From Candidatus Omnitrophota bacterium (lineage in GTDB: Bacteria; Omnitrophota; Gorgyraeia; B26-G9), in NCBI GenBank assembly GCA_043814605.1, contig JBDRJV010000037.1:31899-95898 (forward strand): a DNA stretch of 64,000 bases, given 5' to 3'. This document shows, one piece after another, positions 8,283-43,234 of the stretch. The stretch's first letter is position 1, and every line of letters begins with the position of its first letter. The notes below the pieces were generated by a model that had not been told where the DNA came from, searched no databases, and was given only the letters and a program-made list of their open reading frames with translations. Both the position numbers and the translations under genes were made by a program.

Positions 8283-8296
8283 AAAATAATCATAGC

Positions 8297-18968: not shown

Positions 18969-18987
18969 TTTTAACTGGGGTGGTCCA

Positions 18988-20805: not shown

Positions 20806-20817
20806 ACACTTTTCATT

Positions 20818-22284
20818 ATGAAAATTAAATTTGTGCATTCAGATTTACAGGCGTTGGGTATTGAATATCTTAGTGCAATACTTAAAAAAAATGGGCATAA
20901 TGTGGATTTAATAATTGACCCCATGTTTCCATTTTTGAAAGCAATTTTAAATCCTTTAAAAAAAATTCTTCAATTAAAAGAAAAATTATTAAGAAATATT
21001 TTAAGCAATACCCCAGATATAGTTGCTTTTTCAGTAACAATCCATAATTTTGAATGGGCATGTCAATTAGCAAATGAAATAAAAAAATATTCAAATGCTT
21101 TTATAGTTTTTGGCGGTATCCAAGCAACTTTATTGCCGGAAGTAATTTTTCAAAAAGTAAAAGCTGATTTTGTAATCAGGGGTGAAGCAGAATATGTATT
21201 TATGGAGTTGGTCCAAAGCTTAGAATCTGATAAAAAATGGCATAAAATTAAAAATTTATGTTTCCAGGATAAGGAGAAAATAATAATAAATCCTTTACGA
21301 GAGTTAATTAACAATTTAGATGAGTTGCCTTTTCCGGATAAGGATATTCTCCCCGGATGGTTTAATAAAAAGGCTTACAGGATTATTACAAGCCGTGGTT
21401 GTATAGGAGAATGCAGTTATTGTTGTGCGCCTATTTTAAAAGAATTTTATAAAGGGTTGGGAAGTAAGATTAGAAGGCGTTCGGTTGATAACGTAATTGA
21501 AGAATTGACGTTAGCTCCAGCAAAGTATAATATTAGGAAAGTATTTTTTGAAGATGATTTGTTCACTTTTGATAAAAAGTGGGTAAGAGAATTTACTAAA
21601 CAATATGCTAAAAAAGTCAATTTGCCCTGTCTTATTCATGCTACTCCCGAAACCTTAGATTTAGAGATGATTGAATTATTAAAGGAGATGAACTGTTCTT
21701 GTGTTGAAATAGGAGTGCAAAGTTTAAATCCAGAAATAAGACAAAATTTATTAAGTAGGTATTATTCTAATGGAAAAATAGTAGAAATTATTGAAACTTT
21801 GAAGCAAAAAGGGATAATTTGTATTTGTGATAATATTGTTGGATTGCCGCAGGAAAAATTATCGGATATAAAAGCTGCTATAAAATTTTATGCTAAACTA
21901 AAGCCAGGTAAGATAGAAGTTTTACGCCTTGAGTTCTATCCCCAGGCGTCAATTATCGAAATGAGTAATTTAGCTAAAAAGGATAAAGAAAGAATAAATA
22001 ATGGGGAATTATTTATTTCTAAAGGATCTAATTATAAAAAGGTCTCAAAAATGTTGCTGCTTATAGGCTTAAGTTATATATTACCAGCTAAATCAGTGAA
22101 TTTTTTATTAAGAAAACATTTATTTAATATTTTTCCTTTTTTTGATGATTTTAATCACGTGAATGAATTTATATATTACTTTTCTGCTTTTTTTAAAAAA
22201 AATAAAAAAATAATATTTATTTCCTATCGGAATGATTTACTTGATAAAATTAAGTATGTATTTAAAAATATATTAGAAAATTAA
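20818..22284 (+). CDS. B12-binding-domain radical SAM protein (paralog subfamily 'LGIEYLSA')
   Basis: Has the N-terminal LGIEYLSAILKKNGH B12-binding-like domain, ITSRGCIGECSYCCA (CxxxCxxC) and the C-terminal motif YILPAKSVNFLLRK shared with 35228, 36739 and 44660. Confidence 0.8.
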   Translation: MKIKFVHSDLQALGIEYLSAILKKNGHNVDLIIDPMFPFLKAILNPLKKILQLKEKLLRNILSNTPDIVAFSVTIHNFEWACQLANEIKKYSNAFIVFGGIQATLLPEVIFQKVKADFVIRGEAEYVFMELVQSLESDKKWHKIKNLCFQDKEKIIINPLRELINNLDELPFPDKDILPGWFNKKAYRIITSRGCIGECSYCCAPILKEFYKGLGSKIRRRSVDNVIEELTLAPAKYNIRKVFFEDDLFTFDKKWVREFTKQYAKKVNLPCLIHATPETLDLEMIELLKEMNCSCVEIGVQSLNPEIRQNLLSRYYSNGKIVEIIETLKQKGIICICDNIVGLPQEKLSDIKAAIKFYAKLKPGKIEVLRLEFYPQASIIEMSNLAKKDKERINNGELFISKGSNYKKVSKMLLLIGLSYILPAKSVNFLLRKHLFNIFPFFDDFNHVNEFIYYFSAFFKKNKKIIFISYRNDLLDKIKYVFKNILEN

Positions 22285-22286
22285 TT

Positions 22287-23339
22287 ATGAAATTAAAAAA
22301 AATTATAAGCCCTTTAAATGTAATTGCTAAAATTACTGAAGTTAGATTGTTTAACAAAATTAGATTATTAAATGTTAATTTTTCTGTAACGTCACGCTGT
22401 AATTTAAATTGCAAATATTGTTGGAGAGGAGAGATCAGCAAAAATAATAATCATAATTTTCCGGACGAAATGAAACTTGTACAAATAAAGAAGGCTTTCC
22501 ATAATTTAAGGGAGCTGTATGCAGAAGTGATTAATATTACGGGAGGTGAACCTTTAGTCCGGGAAGATATCTCAGAGATAATCAGGGCTGGACTCAAAGA
22601 TAACTTATGGGTTTCTTTGACGACAAATGGGGTTCTTTTGACACAAAGATTAAAAGAGATTGATGAAGTCAAGCTTCTAATTGTAAGTTTAGACGGGAAA
22701 AAGGAATCTAATGATAGTTTAAGGGGTGAAGGGACTTTTTTAAAAGTAATAAAAGGTATAGAGTTAAGTAAAAACCTAGGCGTACCGCTTATGCTTTCTT
22801 GTGTAATTTCAGCAAAAACTCAAAATGAAGATATTGATTTTCTTTTAAATCTAGCTAAATTTTACGAAATTTATTGTATATTCCATCCTGTAAACGATAG
22901 GGGCATTGTAAATGATAAATGGGAAGTTAATTCGAATATAAAAAAAGTTAAAACAGAGAAAAACGAATTAATTAATAAACTAAATTATTTAAAAAATCAT
23001 CAACTGATTAATAAATCTTGTGGGGGTAAATATTGGTGTGAATTGATGAAAGAATTTCAGGAAAAACAAGAAATACTTAAAAATAAACTGTGTTTTGGCG
23101 GGAGGCTATTTGTAAATATTGAATCAAATGGGGTTGTGACATCTTGCGGGTTAAGCCAAGATCCTTTATTAAGAGACAGGATATTTGATCAGGGGTTTTT
23201 AGAAAACTATCAGTTAGCAGTAAGGAGAATTAGCTGTAAGGGGTGTTTTTGTTATTCATATAAAATGATAAATGATATTTCTAAATTTAATTTGCGAACA
23301 ATTAAGAATTTTTTAATACAAGATAAATTCAAGTATTAG
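22287..23339 (+). CDS. Radical SAM / SPASM-domain protein
   Basis: SVTSRCNLNCKYCW (CxxxCxxC), followed by a C-terminal Cys-rich SPASM-like region (CGGKYWC...CFGG...CG...CKGCFC). Confidence 0.8.
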   Translation: MKLKKIISPLNVIAKITEVRLFNKIRLLNVNFSVTSRCNLNCKYCWRGEISKNNNHNFPDEMKLVQIKKAFHNLRELYAEVINITGGEPLVREDISEIIRAGLKDNLWVSLTTNGVLLTQRLKEIDEVKLLIVSLDGKKESNDSLRGEGTFLKVIKGIELSKNLGVPLMLSCVISAKTQNEDIDFLLNLAKFYEIYCIFHPVNDRGIVNDKWEVNSNIKKVKTEKNELINKLNYLKNHQLINKSCGGKYWCELMKEFQEKQEILKNKLCFGGRLFVNIESNGVVTSCGLSQDPLLRDRIFDQGFLENYQLAVRRISCKGCFCYSYKMINDISKFNLRTIKNFLIQDKFKY

Positions 23340-23387
23340 CTTTTATTTGCAAAAGTAATAAAATTTATTTTTAAGGAGATTTTAGCT

Positions 23388-24746
23388 GTGGTAAATAACG
23401 TGAATATCAAAAGAAAAACGCAGAGCCTATGTATTGTTTGTAAACAAAGAGTCCCGGCTGAAGTTTACAAGAAAGACGAAAAAATATTTTTAAAAAAAAT
23501 ATGTCCTGAACATGGAGATATGGAGGTTTTTTTAGGACGAGCGGATTATTATGAATCATTAGATGAGTTCTTTTGTCTTATCCGTACGAATAAAAATAAA
23601 CACATGCCGACTCTTGAGCTTATTGTTAATTTCGATTGTAATATGAATTGTCCGATTTGTTATTTAGGCCCTCAGCGGAAAGAACTAAGCAAATTCTCAC
23701 CGACTCTTAATGAATTAGAAGATTTTATAAAACAAACAAAGTATTATTCTTTTGTCATTTCCGGAGCAGAGGCAACATGCCGGGATGATTTACTGGAAAT
23801 AATTAAATTACTTAAAAAATATGGTAAGACAGTAAGTATTAATACAAATGCTTTAAAATTAGCAGATTATAAATATGCGAAAAAAATGAAAAAAGCTGGG
23901 ATTGACCGTGTTAATATACAGTTTTCCGGTTTTAATGAAAAAGCTGAGAAGATTTTTAGAGGAGAAAATTATATAGAGATTAGGATTCAAGCTATGGAAA
24001 ATCTAAATAAGCTAGGCATCTCTATGGGACTAAATACTCTAATTGCCGGAAGCTTAAATGAGAATGATATAATTAGGGTACTAGAATTTGGCTTAAAATA
24101 TAAATCACTGCGTATGATAAATTTTTCAACATTAATTTTTGTGGGTGAGACAATGGATTATCCTTTAAATTATTACCTAATGCCCGATGATTTAATGATG
24201 CTTGTTGAAAAACAAACAAAAGGGAAAATTAAAAGAGAAAATCTTTATATTTTTAAAAAACTTGAAATTGTTATTTCATCATTTTTAAATAAAGATACTT
24301 GTTTTTATCGTCATGCTTATTTGCTGATCAAAAAAGGAAAAAATTATTTCCCAATAGATAATTTTATAAATCTAAAAAAACTGGAACCATATTTAGAATG
24401 TTATAAAAATCTTTTTAAAAAAAATAAGTTTCTGGGTAAAACCTTTCTGATTGTAATGACTCCATATTTATTGATTATAAATTATAAAATTTTAAAAATT
24501 TTAAGTGAAGTTACAAGAATGATCATATCCTATTTTTTTAAAAGATGGCTTTTCTTGCAGTCTAGCGATATAGTTTATTTACAATTTTCAGCGGTATGTG
24601 ATTTGTACAAAATTGATTATGATTTATTTAAAAGCTGTCAGTGTAAAACTATTTTCTTTTTTGATCGAGAAAATAATAAATTCTTTAAAAAAAGTAAGCC
24701 CATAGAAGATCATTATTGGTTGTTATGGAGAGATCGTGATAATTAA
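23388..24746 (+). CDS. Zinc-ribbon-fused radical SAM enzyme (paralog 1 of 6)
   Basis: GTG start with AAGGAGA 8 nt upstream. N-terminal CIVC...CPEHG (Cys3His ribbon), CNMNCPIC (CxxxCxxC), and the motifs SGAEATCRDDL and INTNALKL. There is a C-terminal hydrophobic segment and a Cys pair. Confidence 0.8.
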   Translation: MVNNVNIKRKTQSLCIVCKQRVPAEVYKKDEKIFLKKICPEHGDMEVFLGRADYYESLDEFFCLIRTNKNKHMPTLELIVNFDCNMNCPICYLGPQRKELSKFSPTLNELEDFIKQTKYYSFVISGAEATCRDDLLEIIKLLKKYGKTVSINTNALKLADYKYAKKMKKAGIDRVNIQFSGFNEKAEKIFRGENYIEIRIQAMENLNKLGISMGLNTLIAGSLNENDIIRVLEFGLKYKSLRMINFSTLIFVGETMDYPLNYYLMPDDLMMLVEKQTKGKIKRENLYIFKKLEIVISSFLNKDTCFYRHAYLLIKKGKNYFPIDNFINLKKLEPYLECYKNLFKKNKFLGKTFLIVMTPYLLIINYKILKILSEVTRMIISYFFKRWLFLQSSDIVYLQFSAVCDLYKIDYDLFKSCQCKTIFFFDRENNKFFKKSKPIEDHYWLLWRDRDN

Positions 24747-24752
24747 AGTTAT

Positions 24753-26135
24753 TTGCGTAAAAAATATCAGGATAATATAATGAACGGACAAGAAGTAATA
24801 AGAAAAACAACAAGCTTTTGCCCAGAATGTAAAACCACAATACCGGCAGAAGTTATAAAAAAAGATGGAAAAATTTTCCTGTGCAAGTTATGTCCTGAGC
24901 ATAAGGCGCAGGATTATTTTTTGGGTGAAGCTAAATACCATGAATCTTTAGAAGATTTTTATTTTAAGATACGTAAGAATATTAATAAACCTATAGTAAG
25001 TGTAGAGTTAGTGGTTAATTTTAGCTGTAATATGAATTGTCCGGTATGTTTTTTAGGAGATAATTTTGATACCTTAAAAAATTTTGACCCAACGGTTAAT
25101 GAAATAGAATCTTTTATTAAAAAAACAAAGTATAAATCATTTGTAATTTCCGGGGCGGAAGCAACTTGCCGGGACGATTTATTCGAAATAATTAAAATTC
25201 TAAAAAAATACAGCAAGACAGTGGGGATAAATACAAACGGGTTAAAATTAGCTGAATTTTCATATGTGAAAAAACTTAAAGCTGCAGGTGTGGACCGTGT
25301 AAATCTTCAATTTTCCGGTTTTAATTCAGATGCAGAAAAATATCTCAGAGGAGAAGATTACATCAATCAAAAACTTAAAGCCTTGGAAAATCTCAACAAA
25401 TTAAATATTGCTGTGGGATTAAATGCCCTTATTGCCGGAAATTGTAATGAAGATCAAATCGGTAATATTATCGAAATGGTTTCTGCTTATAGGGTAATAA
25501 AAATGGTTAATTTTGGATCTATGGTTTTTACGGGACTAGCAAAAGATTATCCCAGAAAAAATTATATAATGCCAGATGATTTGTTGAGGTTTGCTCAAGA
25601 ACAAACAAAAAATAAAATTAAACGCCAAAGTGTATATATATTCAAAAAACTTGAAATTGTAATTGCATCTTTTTTTAATAAAGATACTTGTTTTTACCAT
25701 CATTTATATTTAATTGTAAAAAAGAAAAATAGTTATAAACCGATAGATAAATTTCTCAATCTAGAAAAAATTGAATCTGTTTTAGAGCAATATAAAAATA
25801 TATATGGAAGAAGTAGTTTTATGGCTAAAATATATTTAATTATGATTCTTCCTTACCTATTAATTATAAATTACAAAATAATTTTAATTCTGGGTGAGAT
25901 TTTTCAAATGTTTTTTTCTTACTTTTTTAAGAAAGCCAATTTTCTTAAACAGCGCAATATTATTTATTTACTATTTTTTGTTGAATGTGATGTGTTACGG
26001 ATTGATTATGACATATTTAATAAATGTCCGTTTAAATCAATTTTCTTTTTTGACAAAAGTAATAATGGGTTTCAGAAAAAAAGGGATCCCATAGAAAATC
26101 ATTATTGGTTTTTATGGAAAGATAAAAAGAATTAG
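24753..26135 (+). CDS. Zinc-ribbon-fused radical SAM enzyme (paralog 2 of 6)
   Basis: CPEC...CPEH, CNMNCPVC, SGAEATCRDDL. Similarity to paralog 1 is high along the whole length. Confidence 0.8.
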   Translation: MRKKYQDNIMNGQEVIRKTTSFCPECKTTIPAEVIKKDGKIFLCKLCPEHKAQDYFLGEAKYHESLEDFYFKIRKNINKPIVSVELVVNFSCNMNCPVCFLGDNFDTLKNFDPTVNEIESFIKKTKYKSFVISGAEATCRDDLFEIIKILKKYSKTVGINTNGLKLAEFSYVKKLKAAGVDRVNLQFSGFNSDAEKYLRGEDYINQKLKALENLNKLNIAVGLNALIAGNCNEDQIGNIIEMVSAYRVIKMVNFGSMVFTGLAKDYPRKNYIMPDDLLRFAQEQTKNKIKRQSVYIFKKLEIVIASFFNKDTCFYHHLYLIVKKKNSYKPIDKFLNLEKIESVLEQYKNIYGRSSFMAKIYLIMILPYLLIINYKIILILGEIFQMFFSYFFKKANFLKQRNIIYLLFFVECDVLRIDYDIFNKCPFKSIFFFDKSNNGFQKKRDPIENHYWFLWKDKKN

Positions 26136-26144
26136 GAATAGAAT

Positions 26145-27512
26145 ATGGAATTAAGAGTCATAAAAAGAAAAACAACAAGCTTGTGTCATGTCTGTAAACA
26201 AAAAGTCCCGGCGGAGGTTTTTAAGGAAAACAATAAGATTTTTTTACGTAAAATATGCCCGGAGCATGGGAATTTTGACGTTTTTTTAGGCCGGGCTCAA
26301 TTTTATGAGTCTTTAGACGATTATTTATTTTTGATTTATCCCGCTAAAAAAATACATAGTGAAGCCGCAGAATTAATGATCAGTTTTGATTGTAATATGC
26401 ATTGTCCGATTTGTTACTTGAAAGACGAGCGTAAATTTTTAAAAAAGTTTGATCCTTCGCTGTGTGAATTAGAAGAATTTATTAAGAATACCCAGCATCA
26501 TTATTTTGTTATTTCTGGGGCTGAGCCGACTTGTCGTGATGATTTATGTAAAATAATTAAAATACTCAAAAAATACAAAAAAACTGTCAGTTTGAATACA
26601 AATGCTCTAAAATTAGCAGATTATAGATATGTGACTAGTCTTAAGAAAGCGGGGGTTGATAAAGTTAATGTGCAGTTTTCTGGGTTAGATCCAAAAGCGG
26701 AATATTTTTTAAGAGGCAGTAATTATATAGATCTGAAATTAAAAGCGTTAGAGAATTTAGAAAAACTTAATATTTCTATAGGATTAAATACACTTATTGC
26801 GCGCACTCATAATGAAGATCAGGTGGGCAAAGTTATAACTCAAGCATTACAATATAATTCTTTGAGGATGATATGTTTTTCAACCATGGTTTTTATTGGT
26901 CATACAGAAAATTATGTTCTGGATACATATTTAGCTCCAGATGATTTACTAAGATTAGCAGAGGAACAGACACAAGGAAAAATTAAGAGCGAAAGCGTAT
27001 ATATTTTTAAAAAACTTATAATCGTTATATTATCTTTTTTTAATAAAAATACTTGTTTTTATGATTTTGTTTTTTTAATTATTAGGAAAAAAAAATCTTA
27101 TATTCCTATAGACAAATTGATGAATCTTAAAAAAACTGAGCGATGTTTAGATAAATATAAAAATATATATAAAAATAATCAAATTTTAGCCAAGGTTTAT
27201 TTAATATTTATTAGTCCGTATTTATTTTTAATCAATTATAAGATTTTGAAAATAGCAGGAAAACTTATTCGCATGATTTTTTCAAAATTTTTTAAAAAAT
27301 TAGGGATTTTTTATCCTAGTGATTTAATCCTGATCCAATTCTTTACAGATTGTGATCTGTACCGTATTGATTATGATATATTTAGAAAATGTCCGTTTAA
27401 AGCAGTTTTCTTTTTTGATAAAAATAAAGAAGGGTTTAAAAAAAGTGATCACCCGATAGAAGATAATTACTGGTTTTTATGGAATAATAAAAATGATTTA
27501 GGATTAATTTGA
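26145..27512 (+). CDS. Zinc-ribbon-fused radical SAM enzyme (paralog 3 of 6)
   Basis: CHVC...CPEHG, CNMHCPIC, SGAEPTCRDDL. Confidence 0.8.
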   Translation: MELRVIKRKTTSLCHVCKQKVPAEVFKENNKIFLRKICPEHGNFDVFLGRAQFYESLDDYLFLIYPAKKIHSEAAELMISFDCNMHCPICYLKDERKFLKKFDPSLCELEEFIKNTQHHYFVISGAEPTCRDDLCKIIKILKKYKKTVSLNTNALKLADYRYVTSLKKAGVDKVNVQFSGLDPKAEYFLRGSNYIDLKLKALENLEKLNISIGLNTLIARTHNEDQVGKVITQALQYNSLRMICFSTMVFIGHTENYVLDTYLAPDDLLRLAEEQTQGKIKSESVYIFKKLIIVILSFFNKNTCFYDFVFLIIRKKKSYIPIDKLMNLKKTERCLDKYKNIYKNNQILAKVYLIFISPYLFLINYKILKIAGKLIRMIFSKFFKKLGIFYPSDLILIQFFTDCDLYRIDYDIFRKCPFKAVFFFDKNKEGFKKSDHPIEDNYWFLWNNKNDLGLI

Positions 27513-28855
27513 TGGACGTAAGGCAAGTAAAAAGAAAAACTACAAGTTTGTGTAGTGTTTGTAAACAAATAATTCCGGCGGAGGTTTTTACAAAAAACAG
27601 AAAGGTATTTTTACGAAAAATATGCCAGGATCATGGAGAAATAGATGTTTTTTTAGGAGATGCTGATCTTTATGAACAGCTTGATGATTTTTATTTTAAA
27701 ATACGGTCTAATAAAAACAGCACGATAGCAAGTCCAGAGCTTATCGTTAATTTTAATTGTAATATGAATTGTCCGGTATGTTATTTAGGACACAATCGAA
27801 AATATTTGGAAAAATTTAATCCTTCGCTTGATGAAATTGATGTTTTTACTAAAAATACTAGTTATAAATCATTGGTTATTTCCGGAGCAGAGGCAACTTG
27901 CCGAAATGATTTATTTGAGATAATAAAAATTCTAAAAAAATACAGAAAAACTGTCAGCCTGAATACAAATGCCCTAAAGTTAGCAGATTATAAATATGTG
28001 GCTGGTCTTAAGAAGGCGGGGATTGACAGAGTTAATGTGCAATTTTCCGGATTTGATGCACAAGCGGAAAAATTTTTAAGAGGTGACAATTACATCGGCC
28101 AAAAAATAAAGGCCCTGAGGAATTTAAATAATTTAAATATTTCTATAGGGCTAAATTTATTGATTGCCGGGGGTTGCAATGAAAAACAGATGATTGAAGT
28201 TCTAAAAATGGTACCTCAATATGGATCCTTGCGGATGATTAATTTTAGTACGATGGTTTTTGCTGGAGGCGCTGAGAATTTCCCTCAAAAAAATTATTTA
28301 GTTGTTGACGATTTATTGAAAATAATTCAGGTTCAGACAAAGGGAATTATTAATCGGGAAGATATTTATATTTTTAAAAAACTAGAACTTGTAATTTCTT
28401 CATTTTTAAATAAATTTACATGTTTTTATCATCATGCTTTTTTAATCATTAGAAAAAAGAATGGTTATATGCCGATCAGTAATTTTTTAAATTTAAAAAA
28501 AACAGAGCTAATTTTAGAAAAATATAATAAAATATATCAAAATAGTAAATTTTTGGCTAAAATTTTTTTAATAATGAGCATGCCTTATTTATTATTTATA
28601 AATTGGAAAATATTAAAAATATTTAGCCAGATTTGGTTAATCTTATTTTCCTATTTTTTAAAACGTGGGCATTTTTTAAGACAAAGTAATTTAGTTTATT
28701 TACAATTTTGTGTTGAATGTGATAAATATCGCATTGATCATGATATATTTAAAAGTTGTACGTGTAAATCATTATTCTTTTTTGATAAAAGCGAAGATGG
28801 ATTTAGAAAAGTAAGTAAACCTGTTTTAAAGGATTACTGGATGTTATGGAAGTAA
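27509..28855 (+). CDS. Zinc-ribbon-fused radical SAM enzyme (paralog 4 of 6)
   Basis: CSVC...CQDHG, CNMNCPVC, SGAEATCRNDL. 4-nt ATGA overlap with paralog 3. Confidence 0.8.
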   Translation: MMDVRQVKRKTTSLCSVCKQIIPAEVFTKNRKVFLRKICQDHGEIDVFLGDADLYEQLDDFYFKIRSNKNSTIASPELIVNFNCNMNCPVCYLGHNRKYLEKFNPSLDEIDVFTKNTSYKSLVISGAEATCRNDLFEIIKILKKYRKTVSLNTNALKLADYKYVAGLKKAGIDRVNVQFSGFDAQAEKFLRGDNYIGQKIKALRNLNNLNISIGLNLLIAGGCNEKQMIEVLKMVPQYGSLRMINFSTMVFAGGAENFPQKNYLVVDDLLKIIQVQTKGIINREDIYIFKKLELVISSFLNKFTCFYHHAFLIIRKKNGYMPISNFLNLKKTELILEKYNKIYQNSKFLAKIFLIMSMPYLLFINWKILKIFSQIWLILFSYFLKRGHFLRQSNLVYLQFCVECDKYRIDHDIFKSCTCKSLFFFDKSEDGFRKVSKPVLKDYWMLWK

Positions 28856-28859
28856 GAAT

Positions 28860-30458
28860 ATGCAACTAAAAAATGATATTAAGAAAATAGTATTAGTCCG
28901 TGCTCCGAAACATATGTGGCCATGGGTTAATGAATCAGACAATTTTCTATTACCATTAGGTTTACCGATTCTTGCTGCTGCAATAAGAAATCAATTTAAA
29001 AATAAAATTGAAGTAAAAATTATTGATTGTCCTCCGTTAAAGATTGGATGGGAAAGTTTAGAACAGATATTAAAGGAAGAGAAAGCGGATGTTATCGGAG
29101 CGGGAGAGGAAGCATTATATCATCATGAGGCCATAAGACTTTTTGAAATATCTAAAAGAATTAACCCTAATGTGATCAATATCGCCGGCGGACATTATTT
29201 TTCCTGGATGGTTAAAGATAGCTTGAAAAATCATCCCATTGATATTATTGTTAAATTTGAAGGAGAGCAGACAATTGTAGATTTGATTGATGCGCTAAAA
29301 CAAAGGCGGGATTTAAACTCTGTCCCGGGAATAGCTTTTAAGAAAAACAGCCAAATTATTGAAACTCAAGCTCGGCCAATTATTCAAAATCTTGATGAGC
29401 TGCCTATCCCTGCCTATGATTTAATGCCCATGCGTAAATATGGTGATAGAGCCATTTTTTGGCCGGAAAGTGCCACGATTGAAGGCAGCCGGGGGTGTAT
29501 AGATACTTGCAGTTATTGCTCATTATGGACATTTTGGGGGAAACACAATAACTCGGGATGCCGAGAAGATAAAATTAAGGCAACGCCTTTTTTTCGGCAA
29601 AAAAGTATTGATCATGTAATGCAGGAAATAGAGATTCTTTATGAAAAATATAATCGCCGATTGCTTTTATGGGCAGATCCGACTTTTAATGTTAATCCGG
29701 AGTGGACAGATAAACTTTGTGATGAAATATTAAGGAGAAATTACAAGTTAGAACATTGGGTATTTTTGCGTACTGATTATGCTTTAAGAGATGAAAAAAC
29801 CGGACTCTTAGCAAAAATGGTGCGTGCTGGTATTGTACATCCACTTTTTGGTGTAGAAAGATCTCATGCTGATGAGTGGAATAAGTTAGGAAAACATGGA
29901 TATAAAAGAGATGAGATTAAAGAGTTATTTCATATAATGAGAGATAAATATCCGCAAATTTTCCGGCAGGCAACTTTTATTACATGTTTACCTTTTGATG
30001 ATGAAAAATCAATGATGAATTTAGCTAAATATGCGGTTGAAATTGATTGTGATTTTCCGGTTTTGCATCCAGCGACGCCTGTACCGGGAACATACCTTTA
30101 TGAAGAGGTGATCAAAAATAATTTTCTTGAAGAAAAAGATCTTAAAGAAGCTTATTGGGAGTATCCATTACTAAAGAATATTCATGGATTATCCAGAACA
30201 GAGCAGGCTCGTTTAAATAGAAAAGCACAATTATATTGCATCCTAATGAATTTTAAAACTATGTTCAAAGGTATTTTCTCAAAATATCCGAGTAAAAGAT
30301 TTCGTTACCGTGAAGTATTAAGAGTTTTAATTTTAAAATCGTTTCAAATGTTTTCTTTGAAGGTTAAAGAATTATTTAATAAACCAACCGATTTAGAAAA
30401 GAAAATTCCTCAGTCGCTATTTTTTATTATGGAAAAGCCTAAGTGGTATGATAAATAG
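28860..30458 (+). CDS. B12-binding-domain radical SAM protein
   Basis: N-terminal B12-binding-like Rossmann region, then EGSRGCIDTCSYCS (CxxxCxxC). Confidence 0.75.
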   Translation: MQLKNDIKKIVLVRAPKHMWPWVNESDNFLLPLGLPILAAAIRNQFKNKIEVKIIDCPPLKIGWESLEQILKEEKADVIGAGEEALYHHEAIRLFEISKRINPNVINIAGGHYFSWMVKDSLKNHPIDIIVKFEGEQTIVDLIDALKQRRDLNSVPGIAFKKNSQIIETQARPIIQNLDELPIPAYDLMPMRKYGDRAIFWPESATIEGSRGCIDTCSYCSLWTFWGKHNNSGCREDKIKATPFFRQKSIDHVMQEIEILYEKYNRRLLLWADPTFNVNPEWTDKLCDEILRRNYKLEHWVFLRTDYALRDEKTGLLAKMVRAGIVHPLFGVERSHADEWNKLGKHGYKRDEIKELFHIMRDKYPQIFRQATFITCLPFDDEKSMMNLAKYAVEIDCDFPVLHPATPVPGTYLYEEVIKNNFLEEKDLKEAYWEYPLLKNIHGLSRTEQARLNRKAQLYCILMNFKTMFKGIFSKYPSKRFRYREVLRVLILKSFQMFSLKVKELFNKPTDLEKKIPQSLFFIMEKPKWYDK

Positions 30459-31851
30459 AAATTATTGCAAAAACGGGAACAATAAAAATAATATTATTCG
30501 CAAGACTACAAGCAGATGTGTTGTTTGTTCACAACCAGTTGATGCATCGCTTATTAAAGTTTTGGATAAAGTATTTTTAGAAAAATTTTGTCCGGTACAT
30601 GGAAGTTTTTGTCTGCTGATTTCTGAACATGCAGATGAATATATGGATTTAGAAAAATTTTATTTTAATGTTAGCGAAAATAATCTTAATTTTTGGGCCT
30701 TAGAAGTAGATTTAACATTTGAATGTAATATGGAATGTCCAATTTGTGCTTGGGGTGAGGATGTGGGAATAGGCAAGACTAATAATCAGCCTGTAATGGA
30801 TGAAATAAAGCGGCTGTTAATTAAAACTAAAGCAAAAGTTATTAGATTCTCAGGAGGAGAGCCTACTTGTAGGAATGATTTGTTTGATATTATTAAAATG
30901 GCAAAAAAGTTAAATAAAAAAATTATTTTAAATACAAATGGTTTGAAATTAGCTAATTTTGAATATGTAAAAAAGTTAAAACAGAGCGGAGTTGATTGTG
31001 TTAATTTAACTTTTGATGGTTTTAATATAGAATTTGAAAGAAACATGAGAGGAAATAATTATTTAGAACCGAAACTTAAGGCGCTAGAAAATTTAAATAG
31101 TCTTTGTTTACCAACAGGATTAAATATTAGGGTTGTCCCAGAGGGGAATGAAGCTGAAATACCTAAAATTATTGATTTGGCTAAAAACAATAAAAATATT
31201 AAACTGCTTAGTTTCGGAACAGTTGGCTATTTGGGACATGCACAGAAGCGGAACATTAAAAAATACTTAATGCCAGATCAATTAGTAGATATTGTTGTTG
31301 AGAATGCCTGTGGTTTAATTTCTCGAGAAAGTATTCGATTATTTCAAAAGTTTTTTATTACGGTTAATTCTTTTTTTACGCAGCGTTGGTGTTTCTATGA
31401 TTCTGCAGCAATTATTTTAGTGCGGGATAAAGATAGTTTGGTTACATTGGATAAATATATTGATCTGCATGATTTAGAAAAGATTTTAGATAATTACGCG
31501 GATAAGTATAAACATAATAAAATATTAGCTAAAATATGTTTATTATTGGGTGGGATTAAAGTTTTTTTTAAGATAAAAAATTTAAGAGTAATAAAAGAAA
31601 TTGTTTTCAGAGGAATTAGTTTTTTTATGCAGAAAAAAAAATACTTAAACTCACAATTATTAATTTATGTAAGTATTAATACTAGTTGTGATCGGTATAA
31701 AATGGATGATATGATTGCTAAAAATTGTATTTTTTCAATGGCCTTTAAAGATGAAAACAATAAACTAAGCATTAAAGGCAGCGGTGCTTTTATTTGTGAT
31801 AAAATTTCTAGTTCAAGTAATAAGAATCAGTTAAAATTTATGGGCATTTAA
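30448..31851 (+). CDS. Zinc-ribbon-fused radical SAM enzyme (paralog 5 of 6, divergent)
   Basis: CVVC...CPVHG, CNMECPIC, SGGEPTCRNDL, NTNGLKL. Confidence 0.75.
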   Translation: MINRNYCKNGNNKNNIIRKTTSRCVVCSQPVDASLIKVLDKVFLEKFCPVHGSFCLLISEHADEYMDLEKFYFNVSENNLNFWALEVDLTFECNMECPICAWGEDVGIGKTNNQPVMDEIKRLLIKTKAKVIRFSGGEPTCRNDLFDIIKMAKKLNKKIILNTNGLKLANFEYVKKLKQSGVDCVNLTFDGFNIEFERNMRGNNYLEPKLKALENLNSLCLPTGLNIRVVPEGNEAEIPKIIDLAKNNKNIKLLSFGTVGYLGHAQKRNIKKYLMPDQLVDIVVENACGLISRESIRLFQKFFITVNSFFTQRWCFYDSAAIILVRDKDSLVTLDKYIDLHDLEKILDNYADKYKHNKILAKICLLLGGIKVFFKIKNLRVIKEIVFRGISFFMQKKKYLNSQLLIYVSINTSCDRYKMDDMIAKNCIFSMAFKDENNKLSIKGSGAFICDKISSSSNKNQLKFMGI

Positions 31852-31865
31852 AAAGAGGAAAACTA

Positions 31866-32933
31866 ATGTTAAAAACGATTCAACATTCATTTCCGCTAAT
31901 CGGTAATGCTGAGAAAAATGCTCTCAATAAGGTGTTAAATACGAGCTTTCTGGCTCAAGGCAGAGAAGTTGAGAAGTTTGAAAAAGGTGTATCCGAATAT
32001 GTTGGATGTTTTCATGCCCAAGCTGTTAATTCGGGTACAGCAGCTTTGCATTTGGCGCTATTAGCTTTAGACATTAAAGCTGGGGATGAGGTAATTATAC
32101 CTAACTATGTGTGTCGGTCAGTATTAAACGCTGTGCAATATGCTAGAGCACGGCCGGTCTTATGTGATGTGGATAAACGCACATTTAACATATTACCAGC
32201 AGCTCTTAAGTCAAAAATTAATAAAAGAGCAAAAGCTGTAATTGTAGCGCATATGTTTGGCTTTCCGGCTCAGATGGATGAATTAAAAAAAATAAGAATC
32301 CCGATTATTGAAGATTGCGCACAAAGTATCGGAGCTGATTTTAAAGGAAAACTTGTGGGTAGTTTTGGAGATTTATCTATTTTTTCATTTGAAGGGACAA
32401 AAACAATTACTACCGGAGAAGGAGGTATGATTTTAACTAATTCCCAGAAATTATCAAATAAAATTACTAGATTTAAAGAGCCTTATGAGAAAGATCAAAT
32501 GCCTAAATATACATTTCGAATGAGTGATTTACAGGCAGCCATTGGCAGAGTTCAGTTAAAAAAATTACCCGGTTTTATTTTTAGAAGAAGAAAAATTGCA
32601 CAAATTTATAGAAAAGCATTTAAAAATTTAAAGGTTGATTTACCATTTGAAAATGATAATATGATTCATTCTTATCATCGATTTATAATTAGTCTAAAAA
32701 AGAAAAATCAAATAAATAAAGTCATTAATTATTGTCAAAAAAAAAGGGTAATGGTGAAAAGGCCGATTAAACATTATGCGCTTAACCAATATTTAGGCAT
32801 ATCAAATAAATTATTTCCGAATACGGATTTTATAATGAAACATTGTATTTCGATCCCCATATATCCAGCTTTAAGCGAAGCAGAAATTATGAGAATAATT
32901 AAAGTAGTTAAAGACGGGGTAAGTCAGTTGTGA
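31866..32933 (+). CDS. DegT/DnrJ/EryC1/StrS-family PLP-dependent sugar aminotransferase
   Basis: EDCAQSIGADFKGKLVGSFGDLSIFSF...K...GEGGMIL and DLQAAIGRVQLKKL. Confidence 0.8.
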   Translation: MLKTIQHSFPLIGNAEKNALNKVLNTSFLAQGREVEKFEKGVSEYVGCFHAQAVNSGTAALHLALLALDIKAGDEVIIPNYVCRSVLNAVQYARARPVLCDVDKRTFNILPAALKSKINKRAKAVIVAHMFGFPAQMDELKKIRIPIIEDCAQSIGADFKGKLVGSFGDLSIFSFEGTKTITTGEGGMILTNSQKLSNKITRFKEPYEKDQMPKYTFRMSDLQAAIGRVQLKKLPGFIFRRRKIAQIYRKAFKNLKVDLPFENDNMIHSYHRFIISLKKKNQINKVINYCQKKRVMVKRPIKHYALNQYLGISNKLFPNTDFIMKHCISIPIYPALSEAEIMRIIKVVKDGVSQL

Positions 32934-33895
32934 ATATAAAATATGATTTTAGAAATGAACGGGAAAAGAATTTTCCTTTGATGCTTAATTTGGAAATAAC
33001 TAATATCTGTAATTATCAATGTATACATTGTCCTTATCCAAGTATTTCTCAAAGAAAAGATTATACCCCTAAGTTTATGTCCTGGGAAATTTTTAAGAAA
33101 ATAGCTGATCAAACTGCTAATTATCCTGAGACAATTTTTAGATTTGTTTGTGATGGGGAACCAATGATGCACCCAGATTTTTTAAGAATGGTTGAATATG
33201 TTAAAAACTTAAAAATCAGTCCGGTTTGTTTTACTACTAACGGATATTTTTTAACCCCGGAGGTTTCTCGTAAAATAGTTGAATTTGGTTGTGACCTTAT
33301 CGAAATAAGTTTAGATGCTTTTTCAGAGTATAGTTATAATAAAATCCGCCGGGGTGGAAATTATCATAAAGTTATTGATAACCTTAATTATCTTATCCAG
33401 TCAAAAAATGAACTATCTGCAAAGAGTTCAAAGATTATGGTTAGTATTATAGATCAGCCTTTAGTTAAAAATGAGATAACTACATTTAAGAATTTTTGGC
33501 AGGATAAGGTAGATTATGTGATTACAAGAGTATTAACGAGTGCGGGCGGGTTTATTAAGGAATCTATTCGAGATAATAAAACTGATGTGGAAATACGATG
33601 GCCTTGTCCTTTATTATGGCGGAGATTGTTTATTAATGTAGATGGTTGGGCTGAATATTGTGTGGATGATTGGTTAGATCAATCGATTTTAGGTGATGTA
33701 AATAAAGAGAGTATTGCCTCTATCTGGGGAGGCCAAAAATATCGAGATTTAAGAAAAAATCACATAAATAATAATTTTAGTTACAATGAAAAGTGTGCAC
33801 AATGTCAGGATTGGAGAGCCAGAACCTGGGAAAATGATTATTTTCATGCAATAGAGAGGATTTTTAATTTAAATTTTAAAAATGAGAATTATTGA
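32930..33895 (+). CDS. Radical SAM / SPASM-domain protein
   Basis: EITNICNYQCIHCP (CxxxCxxC). A downstream Cys-rich region (CPLLW...C...CAQCQ) is consistent with SPASM/twitch clusters. Confidence 0.75.
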   Translation: MNIKYDFRNEREKNFPLMLNLEITNICNYQCIHCPYPSISQRKDYTPKFMSWEIFKKIADQTANYPETIFRFVCDGEPMMHPDFLRMVEYVKNLKISPVCFTTNGYFLTPEVSRKIVEFGCDLIEISLDAFSEYSYNKIRRGGNYHKVIDNLNYLIQSKNELSAKSSKIMVSIIDQPLVKNEITTFKNFWQDKVDYVITRVLTSAGGFIKESIRDNKTDVEIRWPCPLLWRRLFINVDGWAEYCVDDWLDQSILGDVNKESIASIWGGQKYRDLRKNHINNNFSYNEKCAQCQDWRARTWENDYFHAIERIFNLNFKNENY

Positions 33896-35222
33896 TAGTA
33901 CAAAAAGCTTATGTCCGGTTTGTTTACAATGGATTGATTCTGCGGTAGTTACAAAAGATGACCATAAAGTATATTTAGAAAAAAAATGTCCGGAACATAA
34001 AGGAAGTTTGGTGTTTCTTTCTCCGGATGCAGAAGGATTTATTGTTTTAAGAGATTTCTACTTTCAAACTCATCAAAAAATATTTCCCCAAACTCGCTAC
34101 CTTTGTTTTTTAACCCCTAAGTGCAACCTTTCTTGTCCAATTTGTTTTTTGGATTCAGGAATGCAGGATAAAGAAGATATTAATAGGAAAGACTTAGTTA
34201 GGTTTTTGAATAATGGCAAAAAAGAAATAATTATTTTTGGAGCAGAGCCAACTTGCCGTAAAGATATTTTTGAAATAATCAGTTTTCTTAAAAAAAAGCA
34301 GCATTCGGTGAGTCTATACACTAATGGGATAAAATTAGTTGATTATAAATATGCGGAGAAGATTAAGCAAACAAAAGTAAACAAAATATATTTTCAATTT
34401 GATGGTTTTGATGATTCTATTTATGAGGTTTTACGTAAAGTAAAGCTCAAAGATCTCAAGATTAAGGCATTAGATAATTTAAAAAAAATTAATATGCCTG
34501 TGGTTTTAGATGTTGCCTTAGCCAGAGATGTTAATATTAACCAAATGGGATCTATTTTTGAATACGCTCTGAATAACAATTTTATTAAAACAATAAACTA
34601 TATCGCTTATGTGCGTTCTGGTGGAGGAGGAAAATATCTAGCGAATCAAGCAATTATGCCGGATGAATTAATAGACGAAATAAGTAAAGCTACAAAAATG
34701 AGAATAAACAGAGTTAATATGAGAATTTTTCAGAAGTTATTATATGTGTATATGTCAACTTTAAAGAAAAGAACATGTTTTTATATTAAATATTTTTGGG
34801 TTTTCCGCACAGAAAATAACCAGTATTTAACATTTGATCAAATAATTAATTTTGATATGCTAGAAAAAATATTAAATAAGTATGTATTATTAGTAAAAAA
34901 ACAAAATCAGATAATTGCTAGTATGTATTTAGTACTGAAACTTCCTTTTTTACTTTTTTCTATAAAAAACAATAAAGCTTTTTTTCAAATGCTGAAAATG
35001 ATTTTTTCGCATGTTTTTAATCGGGGAGATTATTCTTGCGTTAGGGGTGAGTTTTTACAACTAATATTTACTACTGCCTGTGATGTGGATAAGGCAGATT
35101 TGAAGATTTCGCAGCGTTGTCATGTGGGCATGATGTATAAAAATAAACAAGAAAAATTAGAAGTTTTTAATGAAAATGGTATGTATTTATTAAATCAGGA
35201 AATTCAGAAGAAAGGTGTTTAG
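33882..35222 (+). CDS. Zinc-ribbon-fused radical SAM enzyme (paralog 6 of 6, divergent)
   Basis: CPVC...CPEHKG, CNLSCPIC, FGAEPTCRKDI, YTNGIKL. Confidence 0.75.
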   Translation: MRIIDSTKSLCPVCLQWIDSAVVTKDDHKVYLEKKCPEHKGSLVFLSPDAEGFIVLRDFYFQTHQKIFPQTRYLCFLTPKCNLSCPICFLDSGMQDKEDINRKDLVRFLNNGKKEIIIFGAEPTCRKDIFEIISFLKKKQHSVSLYTNGIKLVDYKYAEKIKQTKVNKIYFQFDGFDDSIYEVLRKVKLKDLKIKALDNLKKINMPVVLDVALARDVNINQMGSIFEYALNNNFIKTINYIAYVRSGGGGKYLANQAIMPDELIDEISKATKMRINRVNMRIFQKLLYVYMSTLKKRTCFYIKYFWVFRTENNQYLTFDQIINFDMLEKILNKYVLLVKKQNQIIASMYLVLKLPFLLFSIKNNKAFFQMLKMIFSHVFNRGDYSCVRGEFLQLIFTTACDVDKADLKISQRCHVGMMYKNKQEKLEVFNENGMYLLNQEIQKKGV

Positions 35223-35227
35223 CTAAA

Positions 35228-36715
35228 ATGCGGATTGGATTTATTTATTCTGAAATGGAAACACTGGGTATCCAATATTTATCTAGTTTTTTAAAACAAA
35301 ATGGATATACAACCAAGCTTTTTTTTGATCCGCAATTATTTGCAGATACAATTTCTCAGAGCAAGTCTTTAAACAAGGTCTTTGACTATAAAAAACAATT
35401 ATTCAAGCAGATAGAAGCATTTAAGCCGGATTTTTTAGCATTTTCTGTTTTAAGTACTAACTACCATTGGGCATTTAAATTTACAAAAGAAATAAAAGCA
35501 AGGTTGAACATTCCTATTGTTTGGGGGGGGGTTCATCCTACTTTAGACCCGGAATCTGTTTTAAAACTTGATTGTGTGGATTATATAATAGCGGGAGAAG
35601 CAGAAGAAGCATTGCTTGAGTTTGTTAATAAATTTAAGAATAAGAATTCTCTGAGTAAATTGAGAAATGTATATACAAAGGTTAATGGAAAAATTATAAA
35701 AAATTTATTAAGGCCATTAATAAATAATTTAGATCAATTACCTTTTCCGGATAAAGATATATTTTATGACATTATGCCATATTTAAAAGATCATTATACA
35801 ATTGTAACGGGAAGAGGATGTCCGCATGCGTGTACTTTTTGTTGCAATCACAGTTTAAGGAAAATAAATGAGCAAAATAGTGGGAAAAATAATTTTTTAA
35901 GACGTAGATCAGCAGACAATGTGGTTACTGAATTAAAGCAAGCTAAAGAAAAATATCATATCAAAGATGTTTTTTTTGAGGATAGTACTTTTACTTACGA
36001 TAAAAAGTGGTTGAAGGAATTTGCAATCTTGTACCATGATTCAATTAATTTGAATTGCTTTTGCTGGGTTCATCCGGCTGAAATTGATGAGGAAGTAGTA
36101 GGATACTTAAGATTAATGAATTGCCGTGCTGTTGAAATGGGAGTAGAAAGTATAAACTCAGAGATTAGGGCCAAATGGTTAGGGCGTAACTATCCCAATG
36201 AGAAGATTGAAAACGCATTAAAATTATTAAAGAAAAATAAGATTTTTTGCATCACAGATAATATTATCGGATTACCCGAAGAAGAAATAAAAGATTTAGA
36301 AAATTTAGTAGATTTTTATAATAAATTACGGCCTGAAAAAATTTATATATTTGAACTAAGAATGTTTCCAAATACTCAGATGCATGAATTGTATCATGAT
36401 TATCAAGACAGCTTTAAAGAAAACAATGATGGATTGTCCCCGTTTACGTTATCTTCTTCACAGAACAAAATGGCGAAAAAAATTATTGTTTTAATTTTAG
36501 CGATACAATTTTTGCCTAAAAAAGTAATCAATTTTTTATTAAAAAATAAGTTATACAAGTTTTTCCCCGCTATAAATTTATATAATCTTTTAGAAATTAC
36601 GCCTTTTTTCTTGAATTTATTCAAAAGAGAAAAACTTTGGTTTCCCATTCGCGGAACAAGAAAAAGGTATTTATTTTTTGCTAAAAAGATGATTATAAAT
36701 TTTATTAAACGTTAA
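35228..36715 (+). CDS. B12-binding-domain radical SAM protein (paralog subfamily 'LGIEYLSA')
   Basis: LGIQYLSSFLKQNGY, TGRGCPHACTFCCN, C-terminal IQFLPKKVINFLLKNKLY. Confidence 0.8.
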   Translation: MRIGFIYSEMETLGIQYLSSFLKQNGYTTKLFFDPQLFADTISQSKSLNKVFDYKKQLFKQIEAFKPDFLAFSVLSTNYHWAFKFTKEIKARLNIPIVWGGVHPTLDPESVLKLDCVDYIIAGEAEEALLEFVNKFKNKNSLSKLRNVYTKVNGKIIKNLLRPLINNLDQLPFPDKDIFYDIMPYLKDHYTIVTGRGCPHACTFCCNHSLRKINEQNSGKNNFLRRRSADNVVTELKQAKEKYHIKDVFFEDSTFTYDKKWLKEFAILYHDSINLNCFCWVHPAEIDEEVVGYLRLMNCRAVEMGVESINSEIRAKWLGRNYPNEKIENALKLLKKNKIFCITDNIIGLPEEEIKDLENLVDFYNKLRPEKIYIFELRMFPNTQMHELYHDYQDSFKENNDGLSPFTLSSSQNKMAKKIIVLILAIQFLPKKVINFLLKNKLYKFFPAINLYNLLEITPFFLNLFKREKLWFPIRGTRKRYLFFAKKMIINFIKR

Positions 36716-43166: not shown

Positions 43167-43234
43167 TCTAAATTATGGGAAAAATTTATTACTTAATACG
43201 ATTAAATAAAAAATTGAAAATTTATTAAAAATAT

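Follow-up and report, generated by a model that had tools for sequence, protein, structure and literature searches.

Six paralogous radical S-adenosylmethionine (SAM) enzymes, four of them encoded in direct tandem, were analysed in a 64,000-nucleotide stretch of Candidatus Omnitrophota DNA (contig JBDRJV010000037.1), which is hereafter called the window in its full length. The open reading frames (ORFs) starting at positions 23388, 24753, 26145, 27509, 30448 and 33882 are labelled W1 to W6. As judged from sequence comparison and predicted fold, W1–W6 constitute a short, cofactor-reduced bacterial branch of the archaeal tetraether lipid synthase (Tes/GDGT-MAS) family that has not previously been described. 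The paralog family is accordingly not an orphan: a profile match and a full-length fold match place it within the Tes/GDGT-MAS/TrsS superfamily. In open-access papers and bioRxiv preprints, no description of this short subfamily or of the Omnitrophota gene cluster that encodes it was found, and nothing of relevance emerged there on COG1964, the profile named in the first-pass annotation.

To our knowledge, no enzyme other than Tes/GDGT-MAS that links two unactivated sp3 carbons via a radical parked on an iron–sulfur (Fe-S) cluster is understood in both structure and mechanism. In the short branch, one of the three Tes Fe-S clusters appears to have been lost, and the cluster implicated in catalysis to have had its set of ligands rewired. 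The branch is tied, by neighbourhood and by gene fusion, to a B12-radical SAM enzyme and to a polyprenyl-phosphate-type glycosylation module composed of a family 2 glycosyltransferase (GT2) and a YfhO-like GT-C protein. As an experiment set up by nature, the short subfamily may reveal which of the Tes cofactors radical C-C chemistry requires, and it offers three defined orthogroups for expression. Interest in such enzymes extends beyond mechanism, as the role of many bacterial Tes homologs is bound up with the origin of the palaeoclimate biomarkers known as brGDGTs, short for branched glycerol dialkyl glycerol tetraethers.

Family assignment and metal sites of W1–W6

The assignment is carried by two full-length matches. 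A profile of the six copies matched the Methanocaldococcus jannaschii GDGT-MAS/Tes structure 7TOL over nearly its full length (E 4e-61). For W1, an AlphaFold2 model that drew on 12 subfamily sequences reached a predicted local distance difference test score of 88.6 and a predicted TM-score of 0.89. When this model was compared with the PDB using Foldseek, 7TOL and 7TOM were the sole full-length matches (TM 0.73–0.75, E ~4e-30, 473–477 aligned columns), whereas the next matches, including BlsE, MoaA, DesII and SuiB, covered the radical SAM core only, at TM 0.41 or less. In the curated models, W1–W6 scored 123–159 bits against Tes (NF045702, equivalog cut-off 450) and 135–153 bits against TrsS (NF045646, cut-off 490). 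Control sequences behaved as expected of true members, with 622 bits for the Tes proteins P0016 and P0024 and 562 bits for the TrsS protein P0026. The next NCBIfam model for W1–W6 was MoaA, at 54–86 bits. Identification of the six proteins as Tes or TrsS proper was ruled out by the curated cut-offs together with the missing ligands described below. A confident assignment to a well-characterised peptide-maturase clade, which the first-pass annotation had named as the outcome that would overturn its interpretation, did not emerge either: maturase models scored 54 bits or less against cut-offs of 265–725.

The domain composition of the six proteins is uniform. PF04055 was detected in all of them with 57–80 bits (gathering cut-off 29.5; E 1e-15 to 4e-22), preceded in each case by PF23545 (Zn_ribbon_HMPTM) with 46–59 bits (cut-off 27; E 1e-12 to 6e-16), and a Pfam scan found PF13186 (SPASM) in none of W1–W6. 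A full-length MAFFT alignment, in which every one of the six ORFs could be included, bears out the initial description of a six-member paralog family with a single architecture. Pairwise identity is 56–60% among W1–W4, and 29–37% when W5 and W6 are compared with the rest and with each other. Sixty columns are invariant, among them the N-terminal site C15, C18, C39 and H42 (C-x2-C-x20-C-x2-H), the radical SAM CX3CX2C motif (C84, C88, C91), the SAM-binding residues G126, E128, T130, T153 and N154 and, in the C-terminal half, C305, C404-D405, D410 and C417. Because of these invariant columns, and because PF04055 and PF23545 score well above their gathering thresholds, the shared motifs are regarded as positional and not as a product of the 29% G+C content; the 60 invariant columns and Pfam and PDB matches with E values of 1e-12 to 1e-61 rule out a compositional artefact of AT-rich DNA. 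W1 is 100% identical to an NCBI entry named 'radical SAM protein' from a Candidatus Omnitrophota metagenome-assembled genome (MAG).

Several details of the first-pass annotation need adjustment. The motif strings quoted there are exact for copies 1–5 and looser in W6, which reads FGAEPTCRKDI and LYTNGIKL. W4 reads CQDH instead of CPxH, and IDYD(I/L)F is found in copies 1–3 and not in the remaining ones. The tandem copies had been described as spaced by 4–10 nt; this holds for two junctions (6 nt and 9 nt), whereas the third is a 4-nt overlap, or 1 nt if W4 starts at ATG 27512. What was termed a zinc ribbon corresponds to the rubredoxin-like Cys3His site of Tes: the N-terminal motif belongs to a recognised domain, PF23545, and the identical motif in the solved homologue binds rubredoxin-like iron and not zinc (Lloyd 2022). 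By contrast, the hydrophobic C-terminal segment was recovered in all six copies, with a 19-residue Kyte–Doolittle (KD19) maximum of 1.6–2.35 near residues 343–380, the highest value (2.35) belonging to W2; the same maximum in Tes is 1.17. In the W1 model, predicted helices at 329–389 are strongly hydrophobic, and the median KD19 of the C-terminal helices is 1.34 for the short subfamily versus 1.11 for the rest of the superfamily (Mann-Whitney p 1e-6).

The metal sites of Tes provide the frame for a residue-level comparison. Tes carries a rubredoxin-like Fe site (C9-x2-C12-x20-C33-x2-H36), an N-terminal cluster, [4Fe-4S]N (C73, C77, C80 and a His), the radical SAM cluster and a C-terminal cluster, [4Fe-4S]C (Lloyd 2022). 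The last is ligated by three Cys and a labile Met439, with the strictly conserved Tyr459 nearby (Lloyd 2022); Tyr459 is dispensable for Tes activity. For the comparison, residues 1–457 of 7TOL were rebuilt from the profile alignment and aligned with 65 superfamily members. The rubredoxin-type motif is identical in spacing between Tes and W1–W6, and its four positions are C/C/C/H in 101–114 of 116 representatives. The [4Fe-4S]N motif, in turn, falls into a deletion of about 23 residues that is shared by W1–W6, all copies from related loci, L001 and L003 among them, and P0004–P0010. Of 99 full-length representatives with a recognisable ribbon, drawn from the best 150 of the subfamily search described below, 97 combine a single CX3CX2C with a C..C..C..H ribbon, and the other two have no CX3CX2C. 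Nearly all other superfamily members examined keep the [4Fe-4S]N motif, including the true Tes proteins P0016 and P0024 and the true TrsS P0026.

Conserved C-terminal residues of the Tes clade are C338, M439, D443, C455 and a 'PF-C' Cys about 17 residues after C455; on account of their conservation across the clade, and not from a reading of the structure, C338, C455 and the PF-C Cys are taken as the probable Cys ligands of [4Fe-4S]C. W1–W6 retain the equivalents of C338 (C305), D443 (D405) and C455 (C417), and that of D448 is also kept. The position of Met439 is occupied by S/F/F/C/N/T in W1–W6 and by G/S/A/N across the 116 representatives, and that of Tyr459 by T/S/A/S/M/M in W1–W6. Of the six copies, W5 alone has the PF-C Cys, which W1–W4 and W6 lack. 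Tes position 442 is occupied in W1–W6 by a new invariant Cys, C404, and a Cys is found there in 20/20 close relatives. Across the 116 representatives, the equivalents of C305, C417 and C404 are present in 109, 110 and 82 sequences, respectively. C305, C404 and C417 would plausibly be enough for a putative site-differentiated C-terminal [4Fe-4S] cluster.

Comparison with the closest known systems further delimits the branch. W1–W6 share with Tes/GDGT-MAS (MJ0619; 7TOL/7TOM; NF045702) the order of a PF23545 ribbon, a radical SAM core and a helical C-terminal domain, which bears a cluster in Tes and a putative one in W1–W6; they differ in being only about 23% identical, shorter (446–467 versus ~506 aa) and more hydrophobic in the C-terminal helices, and in occurring in a bacterial host, in multiple copies and in a context of glycosylation genes. 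TrsS (NF045646, a radical SAM (seleno)protein) belongs to the same superfamily, has the same domain order and yields scores similar to those of Tes. However, P0026 retains the N-terminal cluster motif and the Met439 equivalent, both absent from W1–W6, and no selenocysteine or trs-type neighbours were noted for W1–W6. The bacterial Tes homologs of Acidobacteria, Planctomycetota and Chloroflexota, which are proposed brGDGT synthases, are members of the same superfamily; these published proteins match archaeal Tes with E below 1e-50 and 32–42% identity, whereas the subfamily of the window is a separate, shorter clade. MoaA (GTP 3',8-cyclase) also combines a radical SAM core with a C-terminal three-Cys auxiliary cluster, which contacts the substrate. 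Unlike W1–W6, it has neither the N-terminal ribbon nor the helical hydrophobic domain, and it aligns over the core only (TM ~0.37). Finally, Mss, the membrane-spanning lipid synthase of Thermotoga and Thermoanaerobacter, is likewise a radical SAM enzyme joining lipid tails in anaerobic bacteria. It was dropped as a comparator because its authors call its relation to Tes remote, and it is not the family of W1–W6.

Orthogroups, distribution and the conserved gene cluster

The six copies fall into three orthogroups. Paralog trees were built by neighbour-joining and carry no support values. Orthogroup A consists of W1–W4, with single copies in L001, L003 and L005. W5 represents orthogroup B (orthologs L001_7207, L005_12972 and L005_14357) and W6 orthogroup C (orthologs L001_15130, L005_17778, L019_592 and L003_13143); additional orthogroups exist in other genomes and are lacking in that of the window. 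Since W1–W4 are monophyletic in the tree, it is in this genome alone that the tandem expanded fourfold. The repeated duplication suggested by the first-pass annotation thus applies to W1–W4, but not to W5 and W6, which are old paralogs with orthologs elsewhere. Among W1–W4, the Nei-Gojobori ratio of nonsynonymous to synonymous substitution rates (dN/dS) is 0.20–0.31 with dS of 1.0–1.6; dS values in this analysis (1.0–1.8) are near saturation, and the ratio therefore speaks for long-term purifying selection only and not for differences among the copies. By this measure, W1–W4 appear to be old duplicates held under purifying selection with intact catalytic motifs, neither recent nor decaying. 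Identity among them is 62–65% in the radical SAM core and ~52% in the C-terminal helices, cluster loop and tail, a modest difference consistent with divergence of a putative substrate-facing part. The substrate-variant chemistry that had been suggested for the family fits six copies that apparently represent three conserved orthogroups under purifying selection.

To assess the size of the short subfamily, 1.84 billion representative proteins were searched exhaustively with a hidden Markov model (HMM) profile of 12 subfamily sequences. This search returned 908 proteins at E 1e-30 or better; the best 150 of these 908 (E 2e-57 or better) are all of the short type, and the subfamily comprises at least 150 clusters at 50% identity. 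The orthogroup A alignment served to scan GTDB species-representative genomes, a set that does not include the genome of the window and in which the best locus is 50% identical. Close relatives (30–50% identity, full length) came almost entirely from Candidatus Omnitrophota MAGs, the exceptions being two bins that carry a Planctomycetales label and two Undinarchaeota (29% identity). The latter two, L021 (7265–11374) and L022, hold single-copy, distant short-subfamily members in DPANN archaea. These lie in an apparent operon with another radical SAM gene and a 569-aa protein unrelated to the YfhO-like one; a second radical SAM gene and a FecCD-type ATP-binding cassette (ABC) transporter are also neighbours. 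A separate clade of the superfamily, drawn from Planctomycetota/Brocadiia and others (P0014, P0021, P0028, P0030, P0033, P0040, P0048 and P0050), has a Cys4 instead of a Cys3His N-terminal site and 'LPFEE' in place of the Tes 'MHFxD', and scores ~158 bits on the Tes model.

Gene context was compared across 18 related loci, which were searched with HMMs derived from proteins encoded in the window. In about 12 Omnitrophota loci, 2–5 Tes-like copies occur within 10 kb either side, together with 3–5 B12-radical SAM genes, a SPASM radical SAM gene, DegT, GT2, WbqC and a membrane protein of ~600 aa. Gene order is mostly kept among the related Omnitrophota loci, and a B12-binding radical SAM gene neighbours the Tes-like genes in all related loci. 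The triad of DegT, SPASM and Tes-like genes that ends with W6 recurs in L001, L005, L008, L009, L011, L012 and L013. Its Tes-like member belongs to orthogroup C in the window, L001 and L005, and two B12 enzymes, GT2 and DegT come after the triad in both the window and L001. The YfhO-like protein is present in L001, L003, L005, L007, L018 and L082. YfhO-type GT-C enzymes transfer sugars from polyprenyl-phosphate donors made by cytoplasmic GT2 enzymes.

Gene fusion provides a further link. P0061 (950 aa; L082/L083 10001–12853) is a fusion of a B12-binding radical SAM enzyme with a Tes-like one and occurs on six contigs from independent samples. The compact cluster of L082 has the order SPASM radical SAM, fusion, 276-aa protein, 611-aa membrane protein, Tes-like, B12-radical SAM, GT2 and 626-aa protein, with DegT absent. 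Its 276-aa protein is 36% identical to the product of 18132–18968 in the window, and its 611-aa protein 35% to that of 18949–20805. Acyl-activating and LuxC-like genes lie a few kb upstream. Because this compact cluster without DegT retains these members, the invariant core comprises Tes-like, B12-radical SAM, SPASM radical SAM, GT2, the YfhO-like GT-C protein and a small secreted protein, and the aminotransferases are an add-on in larger versions of the cluster. Fusions of another kind also involve the short Tes-like enzyme in other metagenomes: P0107, P0113 and P0160 join an N-terminal hemerythrin to a Tes-like domain, and one of them is further joined to a P-type ATPase.

Proposed function and competing explanations

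With a probability that we would place a little short of even, W1–W6 are tentatively proposed to be active Tes-type radical SAM enzymes that act on a lipid-anchored hydrophobic substrate, with a division of labour, in a pathway to an envelope glycolipid or lipid-linked glycan. The [4Fe-4S] cluster bound by CX3CX2C would cleave SAM, and the resulting 5'-deoxyadenosyl radical would take a hydrogen from an unactivated sp3 carbon of a substrate held by the hydrophobic C-terminal helices. The substrate radical could then be stabilised on, or passed via, a C-terminal auxiliary [4Fe-4S] cluster with C305, C404 and C417 as ligands, before a C-C bond or another C-X bond is formed. Electron transfer would fall to the N-terminal Cys3His site, acting as a mononuclear metal centre of the rubredoxin type; [4Fe-4S]N, which is the second relay cluster in Tes, has been deleted. 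Orthogroups A, B and C might be responsible for different steps, positions or substrates, within an Omnitrophota-specific pathway in which B12 and SPASM radical SAM enzymes, sugar aminotransferases, GT2 and the YfhO-like GT-C protein would build a heavily tailored glycolipid or lipid-linked glycan. For W1–W6, the analysis establishes homology, fold, motif complement, orthogroups and purifying selection, as well as the conserved gene neighbourhood and the fusion; that C305/C404/C417 bind a cluster, that the substrate is lipid-anchored, what bond is made and how labour is divided is what we infer.

A lipid or other hydrophobic substrate is favoured by analogy, as GDGT-MAS, the one structural relative that matches over the full length, modifies lipids, and as the C-terminal helices significantly exceed those of the remaining superfamily in hydrophobicity. 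Precedents exist for radical SAM chemistry both on lipid-linked sugars (HpnJ and calditol synthase, Cds) and on lipid tails (Tes, the SPASM-type Gms and the B12-type Grs/Gmm), and HpnJ is the best, sub-threshold match of several neighbouring B12 enzymes. Several points weigh against the proposal. The context of DegT, GT2, GT-C, WbqC and deacetylase genes fits sugar chemistry as well as lipid chemistry, and no glycerolipid or ether-lipid genes were found in the window. The putative auxiliary cluster is assumed from just three conserved Cys, with the PF-C Cys absent in five of the six copies. Instead of forming a substrate pocket, the hydrophobic segment might anchor the protein in the membrane. 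In addition, W1–W6 fail both equivalog models and are without [4Fe-4S]N, Met439 and Tyr459; because these three absent features are tied to mechanism or electron supply in Tes, the chemistry of the short branch may differ substantially.

The alternatives differ mainly in the substrate that they assume. In the most literal extrapolation from Tes, the paralogs would couple two alkyl-chain termini into membrane-spanning lipids of a brGDGT- or diabolic-acid-like kind, while the B12 and SPASM neighbours methylate, cyclise or bridge the chains. Tail coupling is the sole characterised chemistry of the superfamily, and the region of the putative C-terminal cluster and the hydrophobic helices are retained in W1–W6. 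Archaeal glycerol dialkyl glycerol tetraether (GDGT) tails are tailored by the same three radical SAM classes (Tes, SPASM Gms and B12 Grs/Gmm), bacterial Tes homologs have already been proposed as brGDGT synthases, and the acyl-activating and LuxC-like genes upstream of the compact L082 cluster would suit such a route. Nevertheless, this explanation is considered unlikely. The six proteins fall ~300 bits short of the Tes cut-off and lack the three Tes features named above, the published bacterial candidates are far closer to archaeal Tes, and the conserved partners GT2, YfhO-like GT-C, DegT and WbqC are glycosylation genes and not genes for glycerolipids or ether lipids. Moreover, a single reaction would leave the 2–6 diverged paralogs per genome unexplained. 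Those partners, along with the conserved DegT-SPASM-Tes-like triad and the three DegT, WbqC, deacetylase, GT2 and many GT-C genes of the window, would suit an explanation in which the paralogs act on soluble nucleotide-activated amino sugars supplied by DegT, catalysing deamination, epimerisation or C-C rearrangement as in DesII, BlsE and AprD4, with the helices as a mere tether to the membrane. BlsE and DesII are indeed the next-best structural matches after GDGT-MAS, and the nucleotide-binding relative MoaA also scores. These matches, however, are confined to the generic radical SAM core, whereas over the full length, C-terminal lipid-pocket domain included, the fold resembles that of GDGT-MAS. 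Furthermore, the compact L082/L083 cluster has two Tes-like domains while DegT is absent, and the DegT association is confined to orthogroup C; sugar tailoring of this kind is judged quite improbable.

Two further explanations find little room in the data. SPASM and B12 radical SAM enzymes are typical of clusters for RiPPs (peptides that are synthesised ribosomally and modified post-translationally), and weak NCBIfam matches to the maturases WgkB, StsB and ApyD were obtained, so that the block could be imagined to modify a peptide of proteusin or ranthipeptide type. The maturase matches are nevertheless far under their cut-offs and weaker than those to Tes and TrsS, and the conserved partners are again glycosylation genes. 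Genes across 20805–35228 are separated by 0–48 nt, which leaves no intergenic room for a precursor gene inside 23388–35222. The largest gap in the cluster, at 41592–41972, which is the one examined among five gaps over 200 nt, is touched by just three ORFs of 22–40 aa, none of which stood out as a precursor, and neither a peptidase nor an ABC exporter was noted among the cluster genes. A role as RiPP maturases is therefore rated as very improbable. A role as cofactor methyltransferases, as once proposed for MJ0619 in methanopterin biosynthesis (HMPTM, the source of the Pfam name), is echoed in the name of PF23545 and in the JGI annotation of the distant homolog P0015 as a 7,8-dihydro-6-hydroxymethylpterin dimethyltransferase. 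It is hardly credible here: structural and biochemical evidence has led to the re-assignment of MJ0619 as GDGT-MAS, the window holds no pterin or methanopterin genes, and the host is a bacterium with a dcw/peptidoglycan cluster.

Under the proposed function, in which Tes-type enzymes act on a lipid-anchored substrate, the cluster points to a heavily radical-tailored envelope lipid or glycan in Omnitrophota, which are ultra-small, uncultured and possibly host-dependent bacteria. If the product were an ordinary modified sugar of the O-antigen type, the interest would be chiefly enzymological. A more far-reaching and rather doubtful extension would see in the Omnitrophota cluster the bacterial equivalent of the toolkit with which archaea tailor GDGT tails, with Tes-, SPASM/Gms-like and B12/Grs-Gmm-like members making cross-linked, cyclised or methylated membrane-spanning glycolipids, each short paralog forging a different C-C link. 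Were this true, orphan tetraether-like lipids of branched or bridged type in anoxic waters and sediments would have a source in Omnitrophota that has gone unrecognised, and Tes chemistry could run without the N-terminal cluster and the Met ligand.

Gene neighbourhood and further observations

Coordinates of the six paralogs and of their neighbours are collected in the table below.

Table. Features of the window that are relevant to the Tes-like paralogs (+, forward strand).
Feature	Position	Strand	Product	Remarks
W1	23388-24746	+	452 aa, Tes-like short radical SAM	Orthogroup A; PF23545+PF04055; Tes model 150 bits vs cut-off 450
W2	24753-26135	+	460 aa; 451 aa from NCBI start ATG 24780	Orthogroup A
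W3	26145-27512	+	455 aa	Orthogroup A
W4	27509-28855	+	448 aa from TTG; 447 aa from ATG 27512 (NCBI start)	Orthogroup A
W5	30448-31851	+	467 aa	Orthogroup B; sole window copy with a Cys near the Tes 'PF-C' position
W6	33882-35222	+	446 aa	Orthogroup C; third member of the DegT-SPASM-Tes-like triad
Nine B12-binding radical SAM genes	starts 10787, 20818, 28860, 35228, 36739, 40167, 43235, 44660, 47388	+		
Four SPASM/other radical SAM genes	starts 2511, 22287, 32930, 46178	+		
WbqC-like	17362-18063	+		PF08889, E 2e-75
Protein with signal-like N-terminal segment	18132-18968	+	278 aa	No Pfam match; core cluster partner
YfhO-like GT-C membrane protein	18949-20805	+	618 aa	Core cluster partner
B12-binding radical SAM	20818-22284	+	488 aa	Upstream of tandem array; HpnJ 115 bits, ladderane-type 107 bits, below cut-offs
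Radical SAM with Cys-rich C-terminus	22287-23339	+	350 aa	Adjoins W1 upstream; PF04055, Fer4_12; no equivalog
B12-binding radical SAM	28860-30458	+	532 aa	Between W4 and W5; best BchE 165 bits vs cut-off 481
DegT/DnrJ/EryC1 aminotransferase	31866-32933	+		Triad member 1; PF01041 E 1e-91; PseC/LegC/ArnB-like, below cut-offs
Radical SAM/SPASM	32930-33895	+	321 aa	Triad member 2; PF04055+PF13186; no NCBIfam equivalog
Two B12-binding radical SAM	35228-36715, 36739-38199	+		Downstream of W6
GT2 glycosyltransferase	38154-38918	+		Best match ArnC, weak
DegT aminotransferase	38925-40139	+		PseC/ArnB-like
Extended radical SAM block	40167-48833	+		B12 at 40167, 43235, 44660, 47388; AmmeMemoRadiSam-type 41973; radical SAM 46178

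Between positions 54 and 54290, all genes lie on the + strand with very short spacers, and GC skew is positive throughout. This block contains ~20 radical SAM genes, namely six Tes-like, nine B12-binding, four SPASM/other and one of AmmeMemoRadiSam type. None of the nine B12 enzymes reaches an NCBIfam equivalog cut-off; their best matches are HpnJ, BchE and a ladderane-type B12 enzyme, at 100–190 bits. Interspersed are three DegT and three GT2 genes, WbqC, a polysaccharide deacetylase, six PMT_2-like GT-C genes and an O-antigen-ligase-like protein. The WbqC-like gene is located at or near the cluster end in the window, L003, L005, L007 and L018. Neither Pfam nor PDB sequences yielded a direct match for the 618-aa membrane protein; its homologs P0207, P0209 and P0214 (~41% identity) exceed the gathering score of Pfam YfhO, and NCBI names one of these homologs a YfhO family protein. 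Compared by hhalign with the PMT_2-like GT-C proteins of the window, the 618-aa protein reached a probability of only 54%.

Additional features were observed in and around the block. The AmmeMemoRadiSam-system radical SAM protein encoded at 41973–43166 scores 231 bits, above the cut-off of 220. It starts with MSISRRNFLKNSLKFCAGVGL, which resembles a twin-arginine signal and would not be expected in a radical SAM enzyme, and no Memo or AMMECR1 partner was noted nearby. A 370-aa ORF at 13140–14252 also has an N-terminus resembling a twin-arginine translocation signal (MKKFTRREFLQKG...) and matches, weakly and partially, the Npun_F2552 family only. An Rfam scan of the whole window gave no RNA matches at the gathering threshold. 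Directly after the biosynthetic block, a dcw cluster at 54531–60939 encodes MraZ, RsmH, FtsL, FtsI, MurE and MurF, and because of these genes the host is regarded as a peptidoglycan-containing bacterium. Finally, six diverged multi-pass membrane paralogs with 15–22% identity are encoded at 837–2510, 4119–5555, 5561–7057, 8189–9676, 15776–17362 and 51758–53491. Two of the six match Pfam PMT_2 (ArnT/PMT-like GT-C family), and the set suggests many different periplasmic glycosyl transfers.

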